A stretch of DNA of 36,480 nt from Anaerolineae bacterium. GTDB taxonomy: Bacteria; Chloroflexota; Anaerolineae; B4-G1; DUEL01. Made by a program: the position numbers and the translations under genes. The stretch lies in assembly GCA_016926575.1 (NCBI GenBank), contig JAFGOJ010000073.1:1-36480 (forward strand), given 5' to 3'. The notes under the pieces were generated by a model. The model was not told the DNA's origin. It ran no database searches and worked only from the letters and a program-made list of their open reading frames with translations. Positions 1 to 21,379 of the stretch are shown here, piece after piece; within the stretch, counting starts at the first letter, position 1, and each line of letters starts with the position of its first letter.

Positions 1-1017
1 AGCGAACTGGAGTGGGTGAAGGACAATGGTATCACCACCCGCGAAGGCTATCTTGAGGCCAGTCGCCGCGGGCGGGGGTTCCGCCTGACTCAGGAGCAGC
101 GCGAGCAGGTTTTCGTGGCCGTCCGTGTTTACCAACAGCGGTTGATTGATCGGAAGTGGATGGATTGGTGGGATGTGCCGCGGCGAATGTGGCGCTGGAT
201 CGAAGAAGAACAGATCGCCCCACCCCAATATGACGTGGTGCTGGTCGACGAGGCGCAGTTTTTCGCCCCGGTCTGGTTCGACATCGTGCGGCGGCTGGTA
301 AAGCCGCAAACAGGGTATCTGTTCCTGGCCGCCGACCCGACCCAGGGCTTCCTGCGCCAGGGCGACTCGTGGAAATCGGTCACCGGGCTGGACGCGCGCG
401 GCCGATCCCACCGGCTGGGGCGCAGCTACCGCACAACGCGCGCTATCCTCGACTGCGCCCTAACCTTCTACCGCCGGCGATTGCCGGAGGACGACGAGGC
501 TATGATTGCGCCGGACTTGGCCGCAATGCCGGAGGGGAAGCCGCCGTTTCTATTGTGCTTCGATAGCCCTCAAGACGAGCGGACGCGCATCGTCAACGAG
601 ATTGCCCGCGCGGTGGAGCAGGGCGTGGAGCCGCGCCACATTTTGATCCTTTCCGCTTCGTGGCGGGGTATGGAGGCGTTGGTGAAGGCGTTGAACCAGC
701 GATTCGGCGCGGGCTCGGCCTGTGACCCCAAAGACGCCTACCCCGGCGACTTCATCCGCGTCACCACGATCAACGCAGGGACGGGGTTGGAGAGCCCCAT
801 CGTCTTCGTCGCCGGGACGCACGAGATGTTCGAGATGGAGAAGAGCTTGCGGCTAAGCGCGGATGAGAGAGAGGCACTGGTGCGCGAGAACACACGCAAG
901 CTCTACATGGCCTTCACCCGCGCCGGGCAGCGACTGATCCTAACTTACCGGGGCGAACTGCCGGAGTCGCTGCAAGAGCTGGTCGAGCGCGAACTGATGT
1001 TAAGGGGGGAATTATGA
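1..1017 (+). CDS. UvrD/Rep-like superfamily 1 helicase, C-terminal part (5' end outside the window)
   Basis: Frame 1 is open from base 1, so the GTG at 16 in the ORF track is probably internal. Helicase-type motifs are present: VVLVDEAQFF (motif II-like), LFLAADPTQG, GRSYRTT, TTINAGTGLESPIVFV and LYMAFTRAGQRL (motif VI-like). Stop TGA 1015-1017 overlaps ATG 1014 of the next gene. Confidence 0.75.
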   Translation, partial: SELEWVKDNGITTREGYLEASRRGRGFRLTQEQREQVFVAVRVYQQRLIDRKWMDWWDVPRRMWRWIEEEQIAPPQYDVVLVDEAQFFAPVWFDIVRRLVKPQTGYLFLAADPTQGFLRQGDSWKSVTGLDARGRSHRLGRSYRTTRAILDCALTFYRRRLPEDDEAMIAPDLAAMPEGKPPFLLCFDSPQDERTRIVNEIARAVEQGVEPRHILILSASWRGMEALVKALNQRFGAGSACDPKDAYPGDFIRVTTINAGTGLESPIVFVAGTHEMFEMEKSLRLSADEREALVRENTRKLYMAFTRAGQRLILTYRGELPESLQELVERELMLRGEL

Positions 1018-3131
1018 CTGGGAACGACCACAGCCTGCATCACCTGCAAGCCGAGCTCCGCCGCATCGACGCCCGCATCCGCCGCGAGGTGCGCCGCTGG
1101 GAGCTGGCCGGGCAAGACCCGGCCGACCGCTTCCGCGGCCTGACACTCTCCGACGCCCAGGCCCACGCCCTCGCCGCGCGCCCGTTTGCGACCAGTTGGG
1201 GGCAAACCGTCGCGCTGCCCCCGCAGGAAGCCCAAACGTTCGCCGCTCTGGAAGCCGAAGCGGTTCAAGAAATCGAAATGCTGGCGCGCGCAGCCCAGCC
1301 CCCCACCCGCCTGCAGCGCCTGGCCGCGACGTTCGGCCTGGAACGCTTCGATCTGGATGCCCTGCTGGTGGCCCTGGCCCCCGCGCTCGACGTGCGCTAC
1401 GAACAGGTCTACGGCTACCTGCAAGACGACGTAACCCGCAAAGCGCCGACGGTCGACCTGGTGCTGAACCTGCTCTCCGAACCCGGCCCGGCGCGACTGG
1501 CGCGGCTGGCACACTTCGCCGACGACGCGCCCCTGATCCGCCACCGCCTGGTCGAGAGACACCCGTTGCCGGGCAGCACCAACGGCGCGCTGTTGAGCCA
1601 GTCGCTGCACCCCGACCCGGCCATCGTCGCATGGTTGCTGGGTCACTACCAGCCCGGCCCGGCGCTGGCGGAGCACATCCACCTGCTGCCGCCCCGCGAG
1701 GCAGCGGAAGATCAGCTGCTGTCTGCCGAGGCGTGGCCCGAGGTGGCCGACGTGCTGCCCCTGGTGCCGGTCGTCGTGTTCTACGGCATCGACGGGAGCG
1801 CGCAACGCGCTGCCGCGCGGCGGATCGCCGCACACAGCGGGCGCGCGCTGCTCCACGTCGACATGGCTGCGCTGGCCGCGAACGACACCTCGCTCCTCGC
1901 GGCCGTCGAACACGCGCTGCGCGATGCCCGCCTCATCGACGCCATCCCCTACCTGACGGGCTGGGACGCCTGCCTGGCCGAAGACGTCCCCCAGGCAGGC
2001 CTGCTCGCCGCAGTGTGCGCCCACCCCGGCATGGTCGTCATCGCCGGGTGGAATACGTGGCAGGTGCAGGGCATCGACCGCGACCGGAACCTGCACTGGG
2101 TCGCTTTCCCCATCCCCACCTATGCCCAGCGCAAGGCCCTGTGGCACCACTTTGCCGGGCAGACATTCAAACTCGGCGATCTGGCCGGGCAGTTCGCGCT
2201 GACCAGCGGGCAGATCCGCGACGCAGTCGCCACCGCACGCGACCTGGCCGTCCGGCGCGGGGGCCTGCTCGAAAGCGCCGACCTGTTCGCAGCCGCGCGA
2301 GCCCACTCCAACCCGCGCCTGTCGAGCCTGGCGCGCAAGATCGCGCCCCGCTACACCTGGGACGACATCGTCTTGCCGGCCGACCAGATGGCGATCCTGC
2401 GCGAGATCGTAGCCACCGTGCGCGAGCGGCCCAAGGTGCTGGAAGAGTGGGCCGTGGGGAAGAAGCTCGCTTCCAGCGACGGCGTCACGCTGCTTTTCGC
2501 CGGGCCGCCGGGCACCGGCAAGACCATGGCCGCCGAGGTGATCGCCGCCGCGCTGCGGCTCGACCTGTATAAGATCGACCTTTCGACCATCGTCAGCAAG
2601 TACATCGGAGAAACGGAGAAGAACCTGGAACGCATCTTCAGCGAGGCGCAAAATAGCAACGCCATTCTGTTCTTCGACGAGGCCGACGCCATCTTCGGCA
2701 AGCGCTCGGAGGTCAAGGACGCGCACGACCGGTACGCCAACATCGAGGTCAGCTACCTGCTCCAGCGTATGGAGGCCTACGACGGCGTGGCCATCCTGGC
2801 GACGAACCTACGCGCCAACCTGGACGAAGCGTTCACCCGCCGGCTCCAGTTCGCCGTGGACTTTCCCTTCCCGGAGGAAGAGGATCGGCGGCGGATATGG
2901 GAGACCCTGTTCCCGGCCACCGTCCCCAGCGCGCCCGGCCTCGACTTCGGCCTGTTGGCGCGGCGCTTCAAGTTGGCCGGGGGCGGCATCCGCAACGTCA
3001 TCGTCACCGCCGCATTTCTGGCCGCCGCCGAGGACACGCCGGTCACTATGCAGCACCTGCTGCACGGCGTGCGCCGGGAGTTGCAGAAGATGGGGCGGCT
3101 GGTCAACGACGCAGATATGCGGATCGATTGA
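1014..3131 (+). CDS. AAA+ ATPase of contractile injection systems (Afp15/Pvc15/Cis15-like)
   Basis: 705 aa. Walker A is GPPGTGKT (about nt 2502-2525) and Walker B is ILFFDEADAIFGKR. The SYLLQRME...ILATNL...LDEAFTRRL block is typical of CDC48/FtsH-like AAA modules. The long non-AAA N-terminal region (LQAELRRIDARIRREV...DRFRGLTLSD) is as in eCIS ATPases, and the gene sits next to the CIS structural genes. Confidence 0.9.
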   Translation: MTGNDHSLHHLQAELRRIDARIRREVRRWELAGQDPADRFRGLTLSDAQAHALAARPFATSWGQTVALPPQEAQTFAALEAEAVQEIEMLARAAQPPTRLQRLAATFGLERFDLDALLVALAPALDVRYEQVYGYLQDDVTRKAPTVDLVLNLLSEPGPARLARLAHFADDAPLIRHRLVERHPLPGSTNGALLSQSLHPDPAIVAWLLGHYQPGPALAEHIHLLPPREAAEDQLLSAEAWPEVADVLPLVPVVVFYGIDGSAQRAAARRIAAHSGRALLHVDMAALAANDTSLLAAVEHALRDARLIDAIPYLTGWDACLAEDVPQAGLLAAVCAHPGMVVIAGWNTWQVQGIDRDRNLHWVAFPIPTYAQRKALWHHFAGQTFKLGDLAGQFALTSGQIRDAVATARDLAVRRGGLLESADLFAAARAHSNPRLSSLARKIAPRYTWDDIVLPADQMAILREIVATVRERPKVLEEWAVGKKLASSDGVTLLFAGPPGTGKTMAAEVIAAALRLDLYKIDLSTIVSKYIGETEKNLERIFSEAQNSNAILFFDEADAIFGKRSEVKDAHDRYANIEVSYLLQRMEAYDGVAILATNLRANLDEAFTRRLQFAVDFPFPEEEDRRRIWETLFPATVPSAPGLDFGLLARRFKLAGGGIRNVIVTAAFLAAAEDTPVTMQHLLHGVRRELQKMGRLVNDADMRID

Positions 3132-3211
3132 CACGAAATTTCCCGCCTTTAGAAGGTGGTTGTTAGCCAAAAGACTGAATCACACCCACGGATGCTTTTT
3201 TAGTAGAGTTA

Positions 3212-20403: not shown

Positions 20404-20407
20404 GCCA

Positions 20408-21379
20408 ATGACCGCTCCCGCCGTCGTAGGTCACGTTGCCAATGTTGGCCGCCGCTACCCCGGCGAAACGGTCGCGTTCCACACCCGCATCCGGGTGAGC
20501 GAGCCGCTCTCTGCCCCCACGTTGCGGGTCTCGCTGCCCCGCGAATGCGTGCTAGAGACGTACCGGGCCGTGGCGGGATTCGCCGGGGCTACCCCCAGCG
20601 TCGAAGTGGACCAGGAGCAGAACCACTATATGACGTGGACGTTCGACGGGGACGTAGCGGCCGGAAGCGAGCACGAGTGCGTGACCGTCTGCCGCATCGC
20701 GCCCGCCGGGCGGGACGTGAGGCTAGAGAGCCGGGCCGTCCTCACCGGTGCAGACGCTGCGCCGGTGGCCGAGGAAACGCTGGCATTGAACGTGGAAGCA
20801 CAGGGGCGCTACCTGCGCTACCTGCCCGAAGTGTACGAGCAAGATGAGTTGATGGGACGCTTCTTGATGCTCTTCGAGAGCTTCTGGGGCCCCATCGAGA
20901 CACAAATCGACCACGCGCATTGTTACTTCGATCCGCAGATGGCGCCGGCCTCCTTCCTACCATGGTTGGCTTCGTGGATGAATGCGACCCTCGACGACCG
21001 GCTGCCGGAGGAGCGTCAGCGGCTGCTGCTCCAGGCAGCGGTCCCGCTGTACCGCCGGCGCGGGACGAAAGAGGGACTAGAGCAGTATCTGGATCTGTAC
21101 ACCGGCGGCACAGCACACATCGTCGAGCACCGCGCACAGGATTTTGTCCTGGGGCCGGCGGCCCACCTGGGACCGGGCATCGCGTTGGGGCGGACGAACG
21201 TGCCGCACACGTTCACCGTCGTCCTCACCCTGCCGCCGGTCGGCGCGCCGAGCGGGAGCGACGAGCAAGCGGTCGCGGCGCTCGAGGAGCAGCGCCGCCG
21301 CGTCATCCAATCGATCATCGAGACCGAGAAGCCGGCTCACACGGGGTACACCCTCCACTTAGAGGTAAAAGAGATATGA
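20408..21379 (+). CDS. Phage tail protein, P2 gpI-like baseplate wedge component (Afp12/Cis12 N-terminal-like)
   Basis: RYLRYLPEVYEQDELMGRFLMLFESFWGPIETQIDHAHCYFDPQMAPASFLPWLASWMNATLDDRLPEERQRLLLQAAVPLYRRRGTKEGLEQYLDLYTG matches the conserved phage tail protein domain found next to baseplate J in CIS loci. Confidence 0.85.
   Translation: MTAPAVVGHVANVGRRYPGETVAFHTRIRVSEPLSAPTLRVSLPRECVLETYRAVAGFAGATPSVEVDQEQNHYMTWTFDGDVAAGSEHECVTVCRIAPAGRDVRLESRAVLTGADAAPVAEETLALNVEAQGRYLRYLPEVYEQDELMGRFLMLFESFWGPIETQIDHAHCYFDPQMAPASFLPWLASWMNATLDDRLPEERQRLLLQAAVPLYRRRGTKEGLEQYLDLYTGGTAHIVEHRAQDFVLGPAAHLGPGIALGRTNVPHTFTVVLTLPPVGAPSGSDEQAVAALEEQRRRVIQSIIETEKPAHTGYTLHLEVKEI

Follow-up and report, generated by a model that had tools for sequence, protein, structure and literature searches.

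The contractile injection system (CIS) encoded on contig JAFGOJ010000073.1 of an Anaerolineae bacterium (Chloroflexota) is followed, directly behind the baseplate gene cis12, by five conserved genes (genes A to E; 21376-35671). At a probability of roughly 0.55, the best overall explanation of the locus is a clade IId CIS that is built in the cytoplasm and uses the module formed by genes A to E to dock to the membrane, and not a particle that is released and targeted by a fiber. In place of the "missing" tail fiber, the locus probably relies on an adaptor resembling TssK, together with membrane proteins and a giant protein of the cell surface; these would tie the machine to the envelope. As far as the literature searched is concerned, this Anaerolineae envelope module is undescribed. 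The window, as we call the whole stretch of DNA that was analyzed, is the complete 36,480-bp contig; neighboring DNA was judged from the flanks of relatives, and components were called with Pfam at curated cut-offs, plus NCBIfam and PHROGs profile searches of the open reading frames (ORFs) in the window.

Five conserved genes downstream of cis12

The original prediction for this contig ended the locus at position 21379, the last position of cis12. That boundary does not hold: gene A overlaps the cis12 stop, and four further conserved genes follow, syntenic in relatives. Because the earlier reading stopped at cis12, it saw nothing to target or anchor the particle. Its statement that the locus has no Afp13/adenovirus-type fiber, lysis cassette, or TssJLM/ClpV stands, but a gene does occupy the fiber position, starting at 21376. 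Likewise, the question it raised about targeting and release is a real one, but a candidate answer is encoded directly downstream and the question has been partly addressed for the clade (PMC10066040, PMC12237407, PMC12998442). The five genes are as follows.

21376..22548, + strand: gene A, Cis13-position protein of 390 aa (cis12 overlap; profile and fold matches)
22545..23372, + strand: gene B, soluble FHA-like and Ig-like protein (Pfam Yop-YscD_cpl/FHA-like; syntenic in relatives)
23372..24280, + strand: gene C, ~302 aa, with a transmembrane helix at each end (hydropathy segments 8-36 and 275-297)
24296..27355, + strand: gene D, 1019-aa bitopic membrane protein (Pfam FHA, E 6e-7; transmembrane segment; AlphaFold2 model with a predicted local distance difference test score [pLDDT] of 85)
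27389..35671, + strand: gene E, 2760-aa giant surface protein, secreted or anchored (Pfam; N-terminal hydrophobic signal/anchor)

Start and stop codons overlap at cis12/A (a 4-nt ATGA), at A/B (ATGA), and at B/C, where the start of gene C overlaps the stop of gene B. By tblastn and gene context, the order in relatives is cis11-cis12-A-(optional methyltransferase)-B-C-D-giant FG-GAP/PKD protein, or a variant of it, on metagenome contigs L081, L084, L085, L087, and L088, genome contigs L090, L091, L093, and L094, and a 99-kb JGI contig. In every relative examined, cis12 is followed by gene A, A and D are the constant members of the module, and all gene D homologues with readable flanks adjoin CIS baseplate genes. 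Gene C is syntenic at 27-32% identity in L081, L084, L085, and L087. An FG-GAP/PKD giant follows gene D in six of eight relatives (the JGI contig, L087, L090, L091, L092, and L094) and is missing or replaced in L088 and L093. Judged from this conserved arrangement, genes A to D are very probably accessory components of the CIS.

The same evidence makes it highly unlikely that genes B to E are an independent adhesin or cell-surface system beside the CIS operon, with gene A alone belonging to the CIS. Gene E is a giant adhesin of a generic type, some relatives have B, C, or E replaced, and no family annotation in NCBIfam or PHROGs ties these genes to CIS. However, the start/stop overlaps form an unbroken series that begins at cis12 and extends to gene C, cis11/cis12 adjoin the gene D homologue in every case examined, distant relatives of gene D neighbor CIS loci in other classes as well as in Actinobacteria, and fusions between FHA domains and gene A-type proteins exist.

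In many relatives, a protein-lysine-methyltransferase-like gene (Methyltransf, MethyTransf_Reg, and WHD_PKMT) is present between genes A and B; the window is without it. In two of them, other genes stand in the place of B and C. The replacement of the 561-606-aa type in L093 has a weak YscD/FHA-like match, and in relatives of the L091/L093 type, a VWA and Big_7 protein plus the FG-GAP giant make up an integrin-like domain set. The positions are as follows.

L087 11198-12943: methyltransferase-like gene
L090 11226-12848: methyltransferase-like gene
L091 3828-5426: methyltransferase-like gene
L093 3987-5555: methyltransferase-like gene
L091 5466-9963: replacement of genes B and C
L093 5570-9977: replacement of genes B and C

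Gene A, a candidate adaptor in the fiber position

Gene A consists of an N-domain resembling TssK and the shoulder of phage receptor-binding proteins (RBPs; residues ~1-195) and a DUF4159 alpha/beta head (~196-390), with neither a transmembrane segment nor a signal peptide by hydropathy analysis. Its C-terminal half matches Pfam DUF4159 (E 3e-14), and residues 22-109 match the N-terminus of the NCBIfam family CIS13_fam (E 4e-13). An AlphaFold2 model built from 38 homologues had a pLDDT of 85. In Foldseek searches, the C-terminal half of this model retrieved 4i66 (Haliangium Hoch_4089; TM-score 0.74), with a flavodoxin/GATase-like alpha/beta fold, and the N-terminal ~240 residues retrieved TssK (6n38, 5mwn, and 5y0e; probability 1.0, E 5e-5 to 2e-4) as well as the crown protein All3314 of the Anabaena thylakoid-anchored CIS (tCIS; 7b5h). 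The sequence profile of gene A reaches All3314 (E 0.025) and gave no sequence-level match to TssK; BFVD matches include phage receptor-binding and tail-fiber proteins.

The N-domain family is large, with 1720 representatives at E <= 1e-3. Among 69 remote members that were scanned, 56 carry DUF4159, two have coiled-coil inserts, and one has a phage tail Collar domain. In three of the 69 (P0348, P0366, and P0371), FHA is fused at the N-terminus in the order FHA-Ndomain-DUF4159, and FHA proteins are therefore linked to the adaptor. Genes A, B, and C have no PHROGs family, and the only mention of DUF4159 in the literature searched is a Pfam release note.

Compared by description only, gene A fits the published account of eBAP3, a ~200-aa TssK-like anchor domain on genes located downstream of Tail_P2_I (PMC12923769). 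Set against the Cis13/eBAP3 class, it has the baseplate-attachment N-domain and the position, and it has neither the full-length match nor a C-terminal receptor-binding module. This bears on the possibility of a genuine extracellular CIS (eCIS), released by lysis, in which gene A would be a short receptor-binding fiber whose DUF4159 head binds the target and genes B to E would be unrelated surface proteins. We consider this unlikely. The N-domain does resemble phage RBP shoulders and eCIS fiber anchors (PMC12923769), one family member has the Collar domain instead of DUF4159, and the OTU protease cargo described below could point to a eukaryotic target. However, mean identity in the gene A family is 57% for the head and 60% for the N-domain, and a head as conserved as the anchor domain speaks against a fast-evolving receptor-binding role. 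Moreover, DUF4159 has an intracellular-type alpha/beta (flavodoxin/GATase-like) fold and is not a lectin or Ig binding module, FHA, an intracellular interaction module, is fused in some family members, the window has no holin/endolysin, and the nearest characterized relatives are not released (PMC10066040, PMC12998442).

Across the 38 homologues, the motifs ESCR and DYGCLW of the DUF4159 head are almost unchanged (residues 272-275 and 343-348; 22189-22200 and 22402-22419). It is possible that a Cys after a beta-strand in this head is the nucleophile elbow of a GATase/DJ-1-like fold, which would give the domain an enzymatic role.

FHA/Ig membrane proteins and a giant surface protein

From its N-terminus, gene D comprises an FHA domain (residues 1-101), a disordered linker, two Ig-like domains (150-385), a transmembrane segment (390-408), and about six extracytoplasmic beta-sandwich domains with Pro/Thr linkers. 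It belongs to a family of ~1000-aa Anaerolineae proteins in which the cytoplasmic part is 53-54% conserved and the extracellular part 31-39%. Foldseek matches of the gene D model were confined to multi-Ig proteins of a generic kind, such as titin, HYDIN, and contactin, and a PDB sequence search with the Ig-Ig region returned nothing. The cytoplasmic N-terminus of gene D has a paralogue in gene B (BLASTP of gene B to residues 1-268, 29% identity, E 7e-18). Of the residues with which FHA domains bind phosphothreonine (Gly-Arg, Ser-x-x-His, and Asn), the gene D family keeps the Gly-Arg and the His but mostly has Ala for the Ser; gene B lacks the Arg as well. The charged loop of gene C between its transmembrane helices is probably cytoplasmic, and the protein had no family match in NCBIfam, PHROGs, or Pfam. 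The domains of gene E are DUF11, nine FG-GAP repeats, PKD, LamG, and four SdrD_B. Two candidate readings of genes B and C were set aside: their NCBIfam matches to OdhI and MmdC lie far below the cut-off and were judged spurious, and a split copy of the N-terminal half of gene D is unproven, gene C matching the second Ig domain of gene D at only E 0.2.

Proteins of this kind are found beside CIS loci well outside Anaerolineae. Distant relatives of the gene D Ig-Ig-transmembrane core adjoin CIS loci in Dehalococcoidia, Chloroflexia, Thermoflexales, Ilumatobacteraceae, and Actinomadura, and the core aligns (E 5e-14) to an Actinomadura CIS-adjacent protein with an Ig-like domain, a transmembrane segment, and a ricin/CDtoxinA domain. 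Sco4256 was found in all S. coelicolor CIS purifications and occurs in IId loci of actinomycetes, cyanobacteria, and Chloroflexi; its family has an Ig-like (pilus-chaperone-like) domain, a transmembrane segment, and a variable C-terminal domain and was called a "putative toxin" (PMC10020575). The Actinomadura protein fits that description. In a Chloroflexia metagenome-assembled genome (MAG), a 1101-aa FHA and Peptidase_C39-like protein lies directly upstream of cis15 (L047 2795-6100) and has weak similarity to residues 7-319 of gene D; therefore, FHA proteins beside clade IId CIS are not limited to Anaerolineae.

The core machine and its clade

The injection machine itself is, with near certainty, a chromosomal clade IId ("Streptomyces-type") CIS, neither a prophage tail nor a canonical type VI secretion system (T6SS), and its core locus is ordinary for that clade. 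Profile searches of the ORFs, which the original prediction had proposed as a check, were run, and Pfam and NCBIfam support the sheath, tube, and baseplate assignments. The ATPase and the DUF4255 cap, the sheath with four gp19-type genes, and the LysM initiator, VgrG, PAAR, gp25, baseplate J, and gpI wedge that it had read from the translations were all recovered, and the sheath, tube, spike, initiator, and baseplate genes lie in one cluster with every match above the Pfam cut-off. Three genes of the interval had not been listed (DUF4157-OTU, 3391-6345; chaperone-like, 10774-11142; 806-aa, 12213-14633). The whole set is as follows.

1014..3131, + strand: Cis15-like AAA+ ATPase, winged-helix N-domain and AAA (Pfam WHD E 3e-42, AAA E 7e-28)
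3391..6345, + strand: DUF4157/eCIS_core protein, 984 aa, with an OTU-like cysteine protease C-terminus (Pfam)
6352..7188, + strand: Cis16 cap/terminator with a C-terminal CarboxypepD_reg-like beta-sandwich (Pfam Pvc16_N [= DUF4255] E 1e-33)
7322..8980, + strand: contractile sheath, Cis2 (Pfam Phage_sheath_1 and Phage_sheath_1C; E 6e-26 and 9e-19)
9008..9454, + strand: gp19-type tube paralogue, extra copy (Pfam Phage_T4_gp19 E 2e-20)
9488..9934, + strand: main tube protein, Cis1 (Pfam Phage_T4_gp19 E 5e-34)
9998..10549, + strand: third gp19-type tube paralogue (Pfam Phage_T4_gp19 E 4e-19)
10774..11142, + strand: tail-assembly-chaperone-like protein, 122 aa (PHROG 508 "tail assembly chaperone" E 1.5e-8)
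11310..11495, + strand: 61-aa ORF (translation; 70% in L004, 58% in L007)
11504..12187, + strand: Cis5-like tube-family protein, tube initiator layer (Pfam Phage_T4_gp19 E 2e-27)
12213..14633, + strand: 806-aa Pro/Ala-rich protein in the tape-measure position (position and composition)
14683..15444, + strand: Cis7 tube initiator with LysM (Pfam CIS_tube E 7e-31, LysM E 5e-5)
15460..17367, + strand: VgrG-like spike, Cis8 (Pfam Phage_base_V E 3e-25, Phage_GPD E 2e-10)
17383..17673, + strand: PAAR spike tip, Cis10 (Pfam PAAR_motif E 2e-27)
17680..18102, + strand: gp25-like sheath initiator, Cis9 (Pfam GPW_gp25 E 6e-27)
18289..20403, + strand: baseplate J-like wedge, Cis11 (Pfam Baseplate_J; TIGR02243 E 5e-117)
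20408..21379, + strand: Tail_P2_I/TssG-like wedge, Cis12 (Pfam Tail_P2_I; TIGR02242 E 1e-28; partial CIS12_fam match)

Clade placement follows the similarity ranking against solved structures. The original expectation of a full, non-phage CIS core set in an "actinobacterial" arrangement is supported. The sheath is 60-82% identical to the sheaths of ~40 Anaerolineae, Thermoflexales, and Caldilineaceae MAGs and ~50% identical in Dehalococcoidia, Chloroflexia, Dormibacterota, and actinomycetes such as Lentzea and Actinomadura; Ornatilinea and Anaerolineaceae MAGs are among the relatives. The order cis15-DUF4157-cis16-sheath-tubes-chaperone-Cis5-long variable gene-Cis7-VgrG-PAAR-gp25-Cis11 is kept throughout the relatives, this core order being common to >40 Chloroflexota loci; in related loci with enough upstream sequence, the ATPase lies upstream of the sheath in 45 of 49 and the cap in 49 of 49. 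Among solved structures, Streptomyces CIS are the nearest relatives: they match the sheath best and at full length (8bky/9gtp, E 1e-160), Streptomyces Cis11 is the best match of Cis11 (9gtp_1K, E 1e-122), and the Cis12 core matches the 190-aa Streptomyces protein 9gtp_E. The next sheath matches were 9ezm (E 2e-115; system not identified) and 9qgl (2e-56), and the named systems followed in the order Anabaena tCIS (3e-55), AlgoCIS (2e-51), PVC (2e-49), Afp (3e-48), pyocin (1e-18), and T4 (4e-10). In bit scores, Streptomyces CIS reached 539, 9ezm 390, and all other systems <=195. Both the Streptomyces systems and a recently imaged Chloroflexota/Deinococcota lineage belong to clade IId and are described as cytoplasmic CIS (PMC10066040, PMC12998442).

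Sheath, tube, baseplate, and chaperone families are common to phages, so a myovirus prophage tail region or an R-type tailocin had to be weighed; we regard it as extremely improbable and rejected it. The CIS hallmarks Cis15 AAA+ ATPase, Cis16 cap, and DUF4157 are present, the 36.5-kb contig has no capsid, portal, terminase, or lysis genes, and the sheath is much closer to those of CIS than to those of pyocin and T4. The flanks of relatives are housekeeping, the genes upstream of cis15 being variable (radical SAM, UPF0029, phosphoribosyltransferase; one SLT transglycosylase), and no sheath relatives were found among 2.9 M viral contigs. In Pfam, NCBIfam, and PHROGs, no window ORF matched capsid, terminase, holin/endolysin, TssJLM, or ClpV families, nor did any match portal or TssA families, and a canonical T6SS was rejected because TssJLM and ClpV were not found in any window ORF. 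No exact-sequence counterparts of three window proteins were found.

Several core genes have features of their own. The extra tube copy at 9008-9454 is a separate gene only in the window and in L040 in the synteny table, the main tube protein is 70-89% identical to those of close relatives, and the third tube ORF opens at 9935, with a likely start at ATG 9998. The 122-aa chaperone-like protein ranks among the best-conserved proteins of the locus, at 60-89% identity across relatives, including those with ~50% sheath identity, and a PDB sequence search with it found nothing. The place of the Cis5-like gene ahead of the tape-measure-like gene is kept in relatives. The 806-aa protein (19% Pro, 18% Ala) is conserved only in its N-terminal ~190 aa and C-terminal ~40 aa, the length of the interval varies among relatives, and it had no family match in Pfam, NCBIfam, or PHROGs; we infer a Cis14-like, tape-measure role. 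Its gene contains short tandem repeats (21-nt and related periods) at 12788-12846, 13580-13662, and 13779-13874, which encode KKQE(T/A)GS-type and LPEAAPA-type units and could alter the length of the protein. A C-terminal motif, D.xALAxxVxxLLKxxLxxERERR, is common to the 61-aa ORF and the 806-aa protein (11310-11495; 14540-14633); it may serve both as a signal for docking to the tube lumen or the spike. Compared with Streptomyces, Cis12 has an N-terminal extension of ~135 aa (20408-20812) that is absent from the 190-aa counterpart, and Cis11 has ~48 extra C-terminal residues; these additions are possible docking sites for gene A.

The DUF4157-OTU protein is probably a polymorphic CIS cargo or effector. 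It matches Pfam eCIS_core (E 1e-33; residues 249-325) and, above the cut-off, OTU (E 1e-5; residues 853-980), and its translation contains HExxH, DGNCQF (the OTU DGNC Cys motif), and a C-terminal His. Conservation in relatives is limited to residues ~1-325; the remaining 655 residues had two relatives in 5.8e9 clusters, both of them DUF4157 proteins, and the protein found nothing in a PDB sequence search and has no PHROGs family. A conserved DUF4157 N-terminal region joined to a variable C-terminal enzyme domain, inside a CIS cluster, is the pattern of polymorphic effectors. A DUF4157 protein of S. lividans has been found to bind the Cis5 homologue there and to bring about the association of cargo (PMC13277306). 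The cargo reading follows from the conserved N-terminal part, the near-unique C-terminus, the OTU domain, and this binding, and an OTU-type protease thus joins the list of CIS cargo candidates. In the N-terminal region, a 45-bp tandem repeat at 3770-4055 (6.2 copies, 91% identity) encodes LQLKPLVQRQEDEEE repeats.

Between the third tube gene and the gene for the chaperone-like protein, an AT-rich gap of 225 bp folds into a long hairpin (10565-10748; -61.8 kcal/mol, z -6.6). The motif of its arm, TTTTNAGTAGAGTNAT, is found again ahead of the DUF4157 gene, at 3197-3212 (3 matches vs 0.03 expected). The motif is absent from all 94 related loci and could be a genome-specific element of the MITE/REP-like kind or a regulatory site. 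G+C content of the window is 65%, and the reading frames are backed by third-position GC (GC3) frame analysis. Rfam found no RNA families in the window, and promoter and terminator scans gave counts near chance, with none positioned to define an operon; therefore, no operon boundaries can be drawn from them. The + strand holds every gene except the last one, and the two genes at the ends of the contig are as follows; the stop codon of the first overlaps the cis15 start by 4 nt, a neighbor shared by no relative.

16-1017, + strand: UvrD-like helicase, C-terminal part, cut by the contig end (profile match)
35741-36454, - strand: NUDIX hydrolase, convergent, closing the + strand gene array at its 3' end

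Proposed mechanism and alternatives

We propose that the particle would assemble in the cytoplasm, with the 122-aa chaperone-like protein and the 806-aa Pro/Ala-rich protein of the tape-measure position taking part, and that the DUF4157-OTU protein would be loaded as cargo at the spike/tube initiator, as reported for Streptomyces DUF4157 proteins. Gene A trimers at the baseplate periphery would replace the receptor-binding fiber, their TssK-like N-domain sitting on the Cis11/Cis12 (TssF/TssG-like) wedge as TssK does on TssFG, and the DUF4159 head would dock to the cytoplasmic FHA/Ig domains of B and D. Gene C and the transmembrane helix of gene D would anchor B and D in the membrane; the Ig-repeat stalk of D would extend through the wall and may meet the giant FG-GAP protein E at the surface. 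The module would in this way either position the CIS at the cytoplasmic membrane or trigger its firing there, and firing could be outward into a neighboring cell or serve self-lysis. Its analogues would be TssK plus the membrane complex in the T6SS, Cis13/Cis12 in the Anabaena tCIS (PMC8894136), and CisA in Streptomyces (PMC12237407). For membrane docking through gene A and B/D as such, we see about even odds.

Several observations weigh against this proposal. (i) The CIS13_fam score of gene A is 49 bits against a full-length cut-off of 370, and its Foldseek alignments to TssK have TMq ~0.25 and a root mean square deviation of 10-12 A, these TM-scores being low because only one domain matches. 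(ii) The docking of the DUF4159 head to FHA/Ig domains is suggested only by gene order, the fusions, and analogy. (iii) The phosphothreonine-binding Ser of the FHA domain is Ala in 36 of 44 gene D family members; with this Ser missing, phospho-signaling is doubtful. Phospho-regulated Fha-type control was rejected as the default reading, the key Ser being absent and the window having no kinase or phosphatase. The best alternative Pfam match of these FHA domains is the phospho-independent YscD cytoplasmic domain, and those of B and D may be phospho-independent scaffolds like that domain of the type III secretion system. (iv) The Actinomadura protein and the gene D core are likened to Sco4256 by its published description only. 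(v) L091 and L093 have a 561-606-aa protein and a VWA/Big_7 protein of ~900 aa instead of genes B and C, and L093 has a small PKD protein in place of the giant gene E; the module is therefore plastic. (vi) CIS particles of Roseiflexus, a more distant member of the Chloroflexota, were imaged unanchored in the cytoplasm (PMC12998442). The envelope role of the module is a hypothesis drawn from comparison only.

This last observation also favors a distinctly less probable reading, a free-floating cytoplasmic CIS of the Streptomyces/Roseiflexus kind that fires inside the stressed producer and leads to its death, with genes A to E as a transient trigger or as unrelated neighbors. The sheath and Cis11 are indeed nearest to Streptomyces cytoplasmic CIS, and the locus is without a lysis cassette and without a canonical fiber. 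Anaerolineae are typically filamentous, like other hosts of the clade, a habit that also suits this reading. Against it, gene A lies in the fiber slot, is translationally coupled to cis12, and has a TssK-like baseplate domain, and the membrane proteins D and C are strictly CIS-linked. Firing in Streptomyces also needs the membrane protein CisA (PMC12237407), and therefore "unanchored" and "membrane-triggered" are compatible.

More speculative than docking as such, and in our judgment rather unlikely, is a T6SS-like, membrane-anchored, contact-dependent injector in a cell without a classical outer membrane. It would use an undescribed trans-envelope complex made up of the TssK-like/DUF4159 adaptor, FHA/PapD-like-Ig membrane proteins, a wall-crossing stalk, and an integrin-like FG-GAP adhesin that holds the target, and it would deliver the OTU protease. 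On that reading, Sco4256, matched by description only, would probably belong to the FHA/PapD-like-Ig family of gene D, and if it were true, "cytoplasmic" clade IId CIS might generally dock to the membrane at Sco4256-like proteins.

How clade IId CIS reach the membrane and time their firing is an open question, and these systems are widespread in Actinobacteria, Chloroflexota, and Deinococcota. The only such factor known in Streptomyces is CisA, close homologues of which are reported absent from Roseiflexus, the sole Chloroflexota CIS lineage studied so far. With its DUF4159-headed TssK-like adaptor, baseplate-adjacent FHA/Ig membrane proteins, and rare FHA-adaptor fusions, the docking proposal offers a testable candidate link. 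A possible role for DUF4159, for which no function has been published, also follows from it, and so does the suggestion that the Sco4256 family, described so far as a "putative toxin," could be a membrane partner.

Comparison with known systems

The CIS of Streptomyces coelicolor and S. venezuelae (CIS-Sc, clade IId; 8bky, 9gtp, and 8bl4) are the closest in their sheath, Cis11, and Cis12-core matches. They share with our locus the Tail_P2_I-type wedge, a DUF4157 protein in the cluster, the lack of an Afp13 fiber, ClpV, and lysis genes, a membrane protein encoded downstream of the baseplate genes, and a CIS-adjacent protein with Ig and transmembrane segments of the kind described for Sco4256 (PMC10020575). 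In Streptomyces, that membrane protein is CisA, encoded downstream of the baseplate and needed for firing (PMC12237407). However, sheath identity is only ~50%, and the gene after cis12 encodes here a soluble TssK-like/DUF4159 protein and not a CisA-like bitopic one. The bitopic protein of the window is gene D, three genes beyond gene A, and its architecture is unlike that of CisA (SCO4242) by description, since it has an FHA domain and a long Ig-repeat ectodomain. The giant FG-GAP protein, OTU cargo, PAAR, and extra tube paralogues are further differences.

The Roseiflexus/Chloroflexota-Deinococcota lineage (Gaisin et al., ISME J 2026, PMC12998442) shares the phylum and clade IId. It differs in comprising Chloroflexia and thermophiles, in sheaths ~50% identical to that of the window, and in its unanchored particles. 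A close cisA homologue is absent from it, and the DUF4159/FHA/FG-GAP module, Cis13, and Anaerolineae are not mentioned in that paper (PMC12998442).

With the T6SS (TssK, TssFG, and TssJLM), the locus shares the apparently TssK-like fold of the gene A N-domain, encoded after a TssG-like Tail_P2_I gene, and FHA scaffold proteins, which also occur in T6SS clusters; in our proposal, the head of gene A would also correspond to that of TssK in touching membrane proteins. In contrast, there is no TssJ, TssL, TssM, TssA, or ClpV here, the head is DUF4159 and not the TssK head, and the locus has a Cis15 ATPase, a Cis16 cap, and a protein in the tape-measure position. Another difference is the Anaerolineae host, which presumably lacks an outer membrane.

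For the eBAP3 fibers of eCIS (Nat Commun 2026, PMC12923769), the likeness lies in the ~200-aa shoulder-like, TssK-like N-domain encoded downstream of Tail_P2_I. The published ones carry lectin, Ig, collagen, or beta-propeller binding modules, and the text and the supplements covered do not mention DUF4159, FHA, or Chloroflexota.

The Anabaena tCIS (7b5h; PMC8894136) differs in that its tether, Cis13, has its own transmembrane segment, whereas gene A would be a soluble adaptor with the transmembrane segments in separate proteins; sheath similarity is also much lower (E 3e-55), and there are no thylakoids here. The two systems nevertheless appear to share a principle: the gene A N-domain resembles the crown protein All3314/Cis19, and in both, a fiber-position protein with an N-terminal baseplate-binding domain would be reused as a membrane tether.

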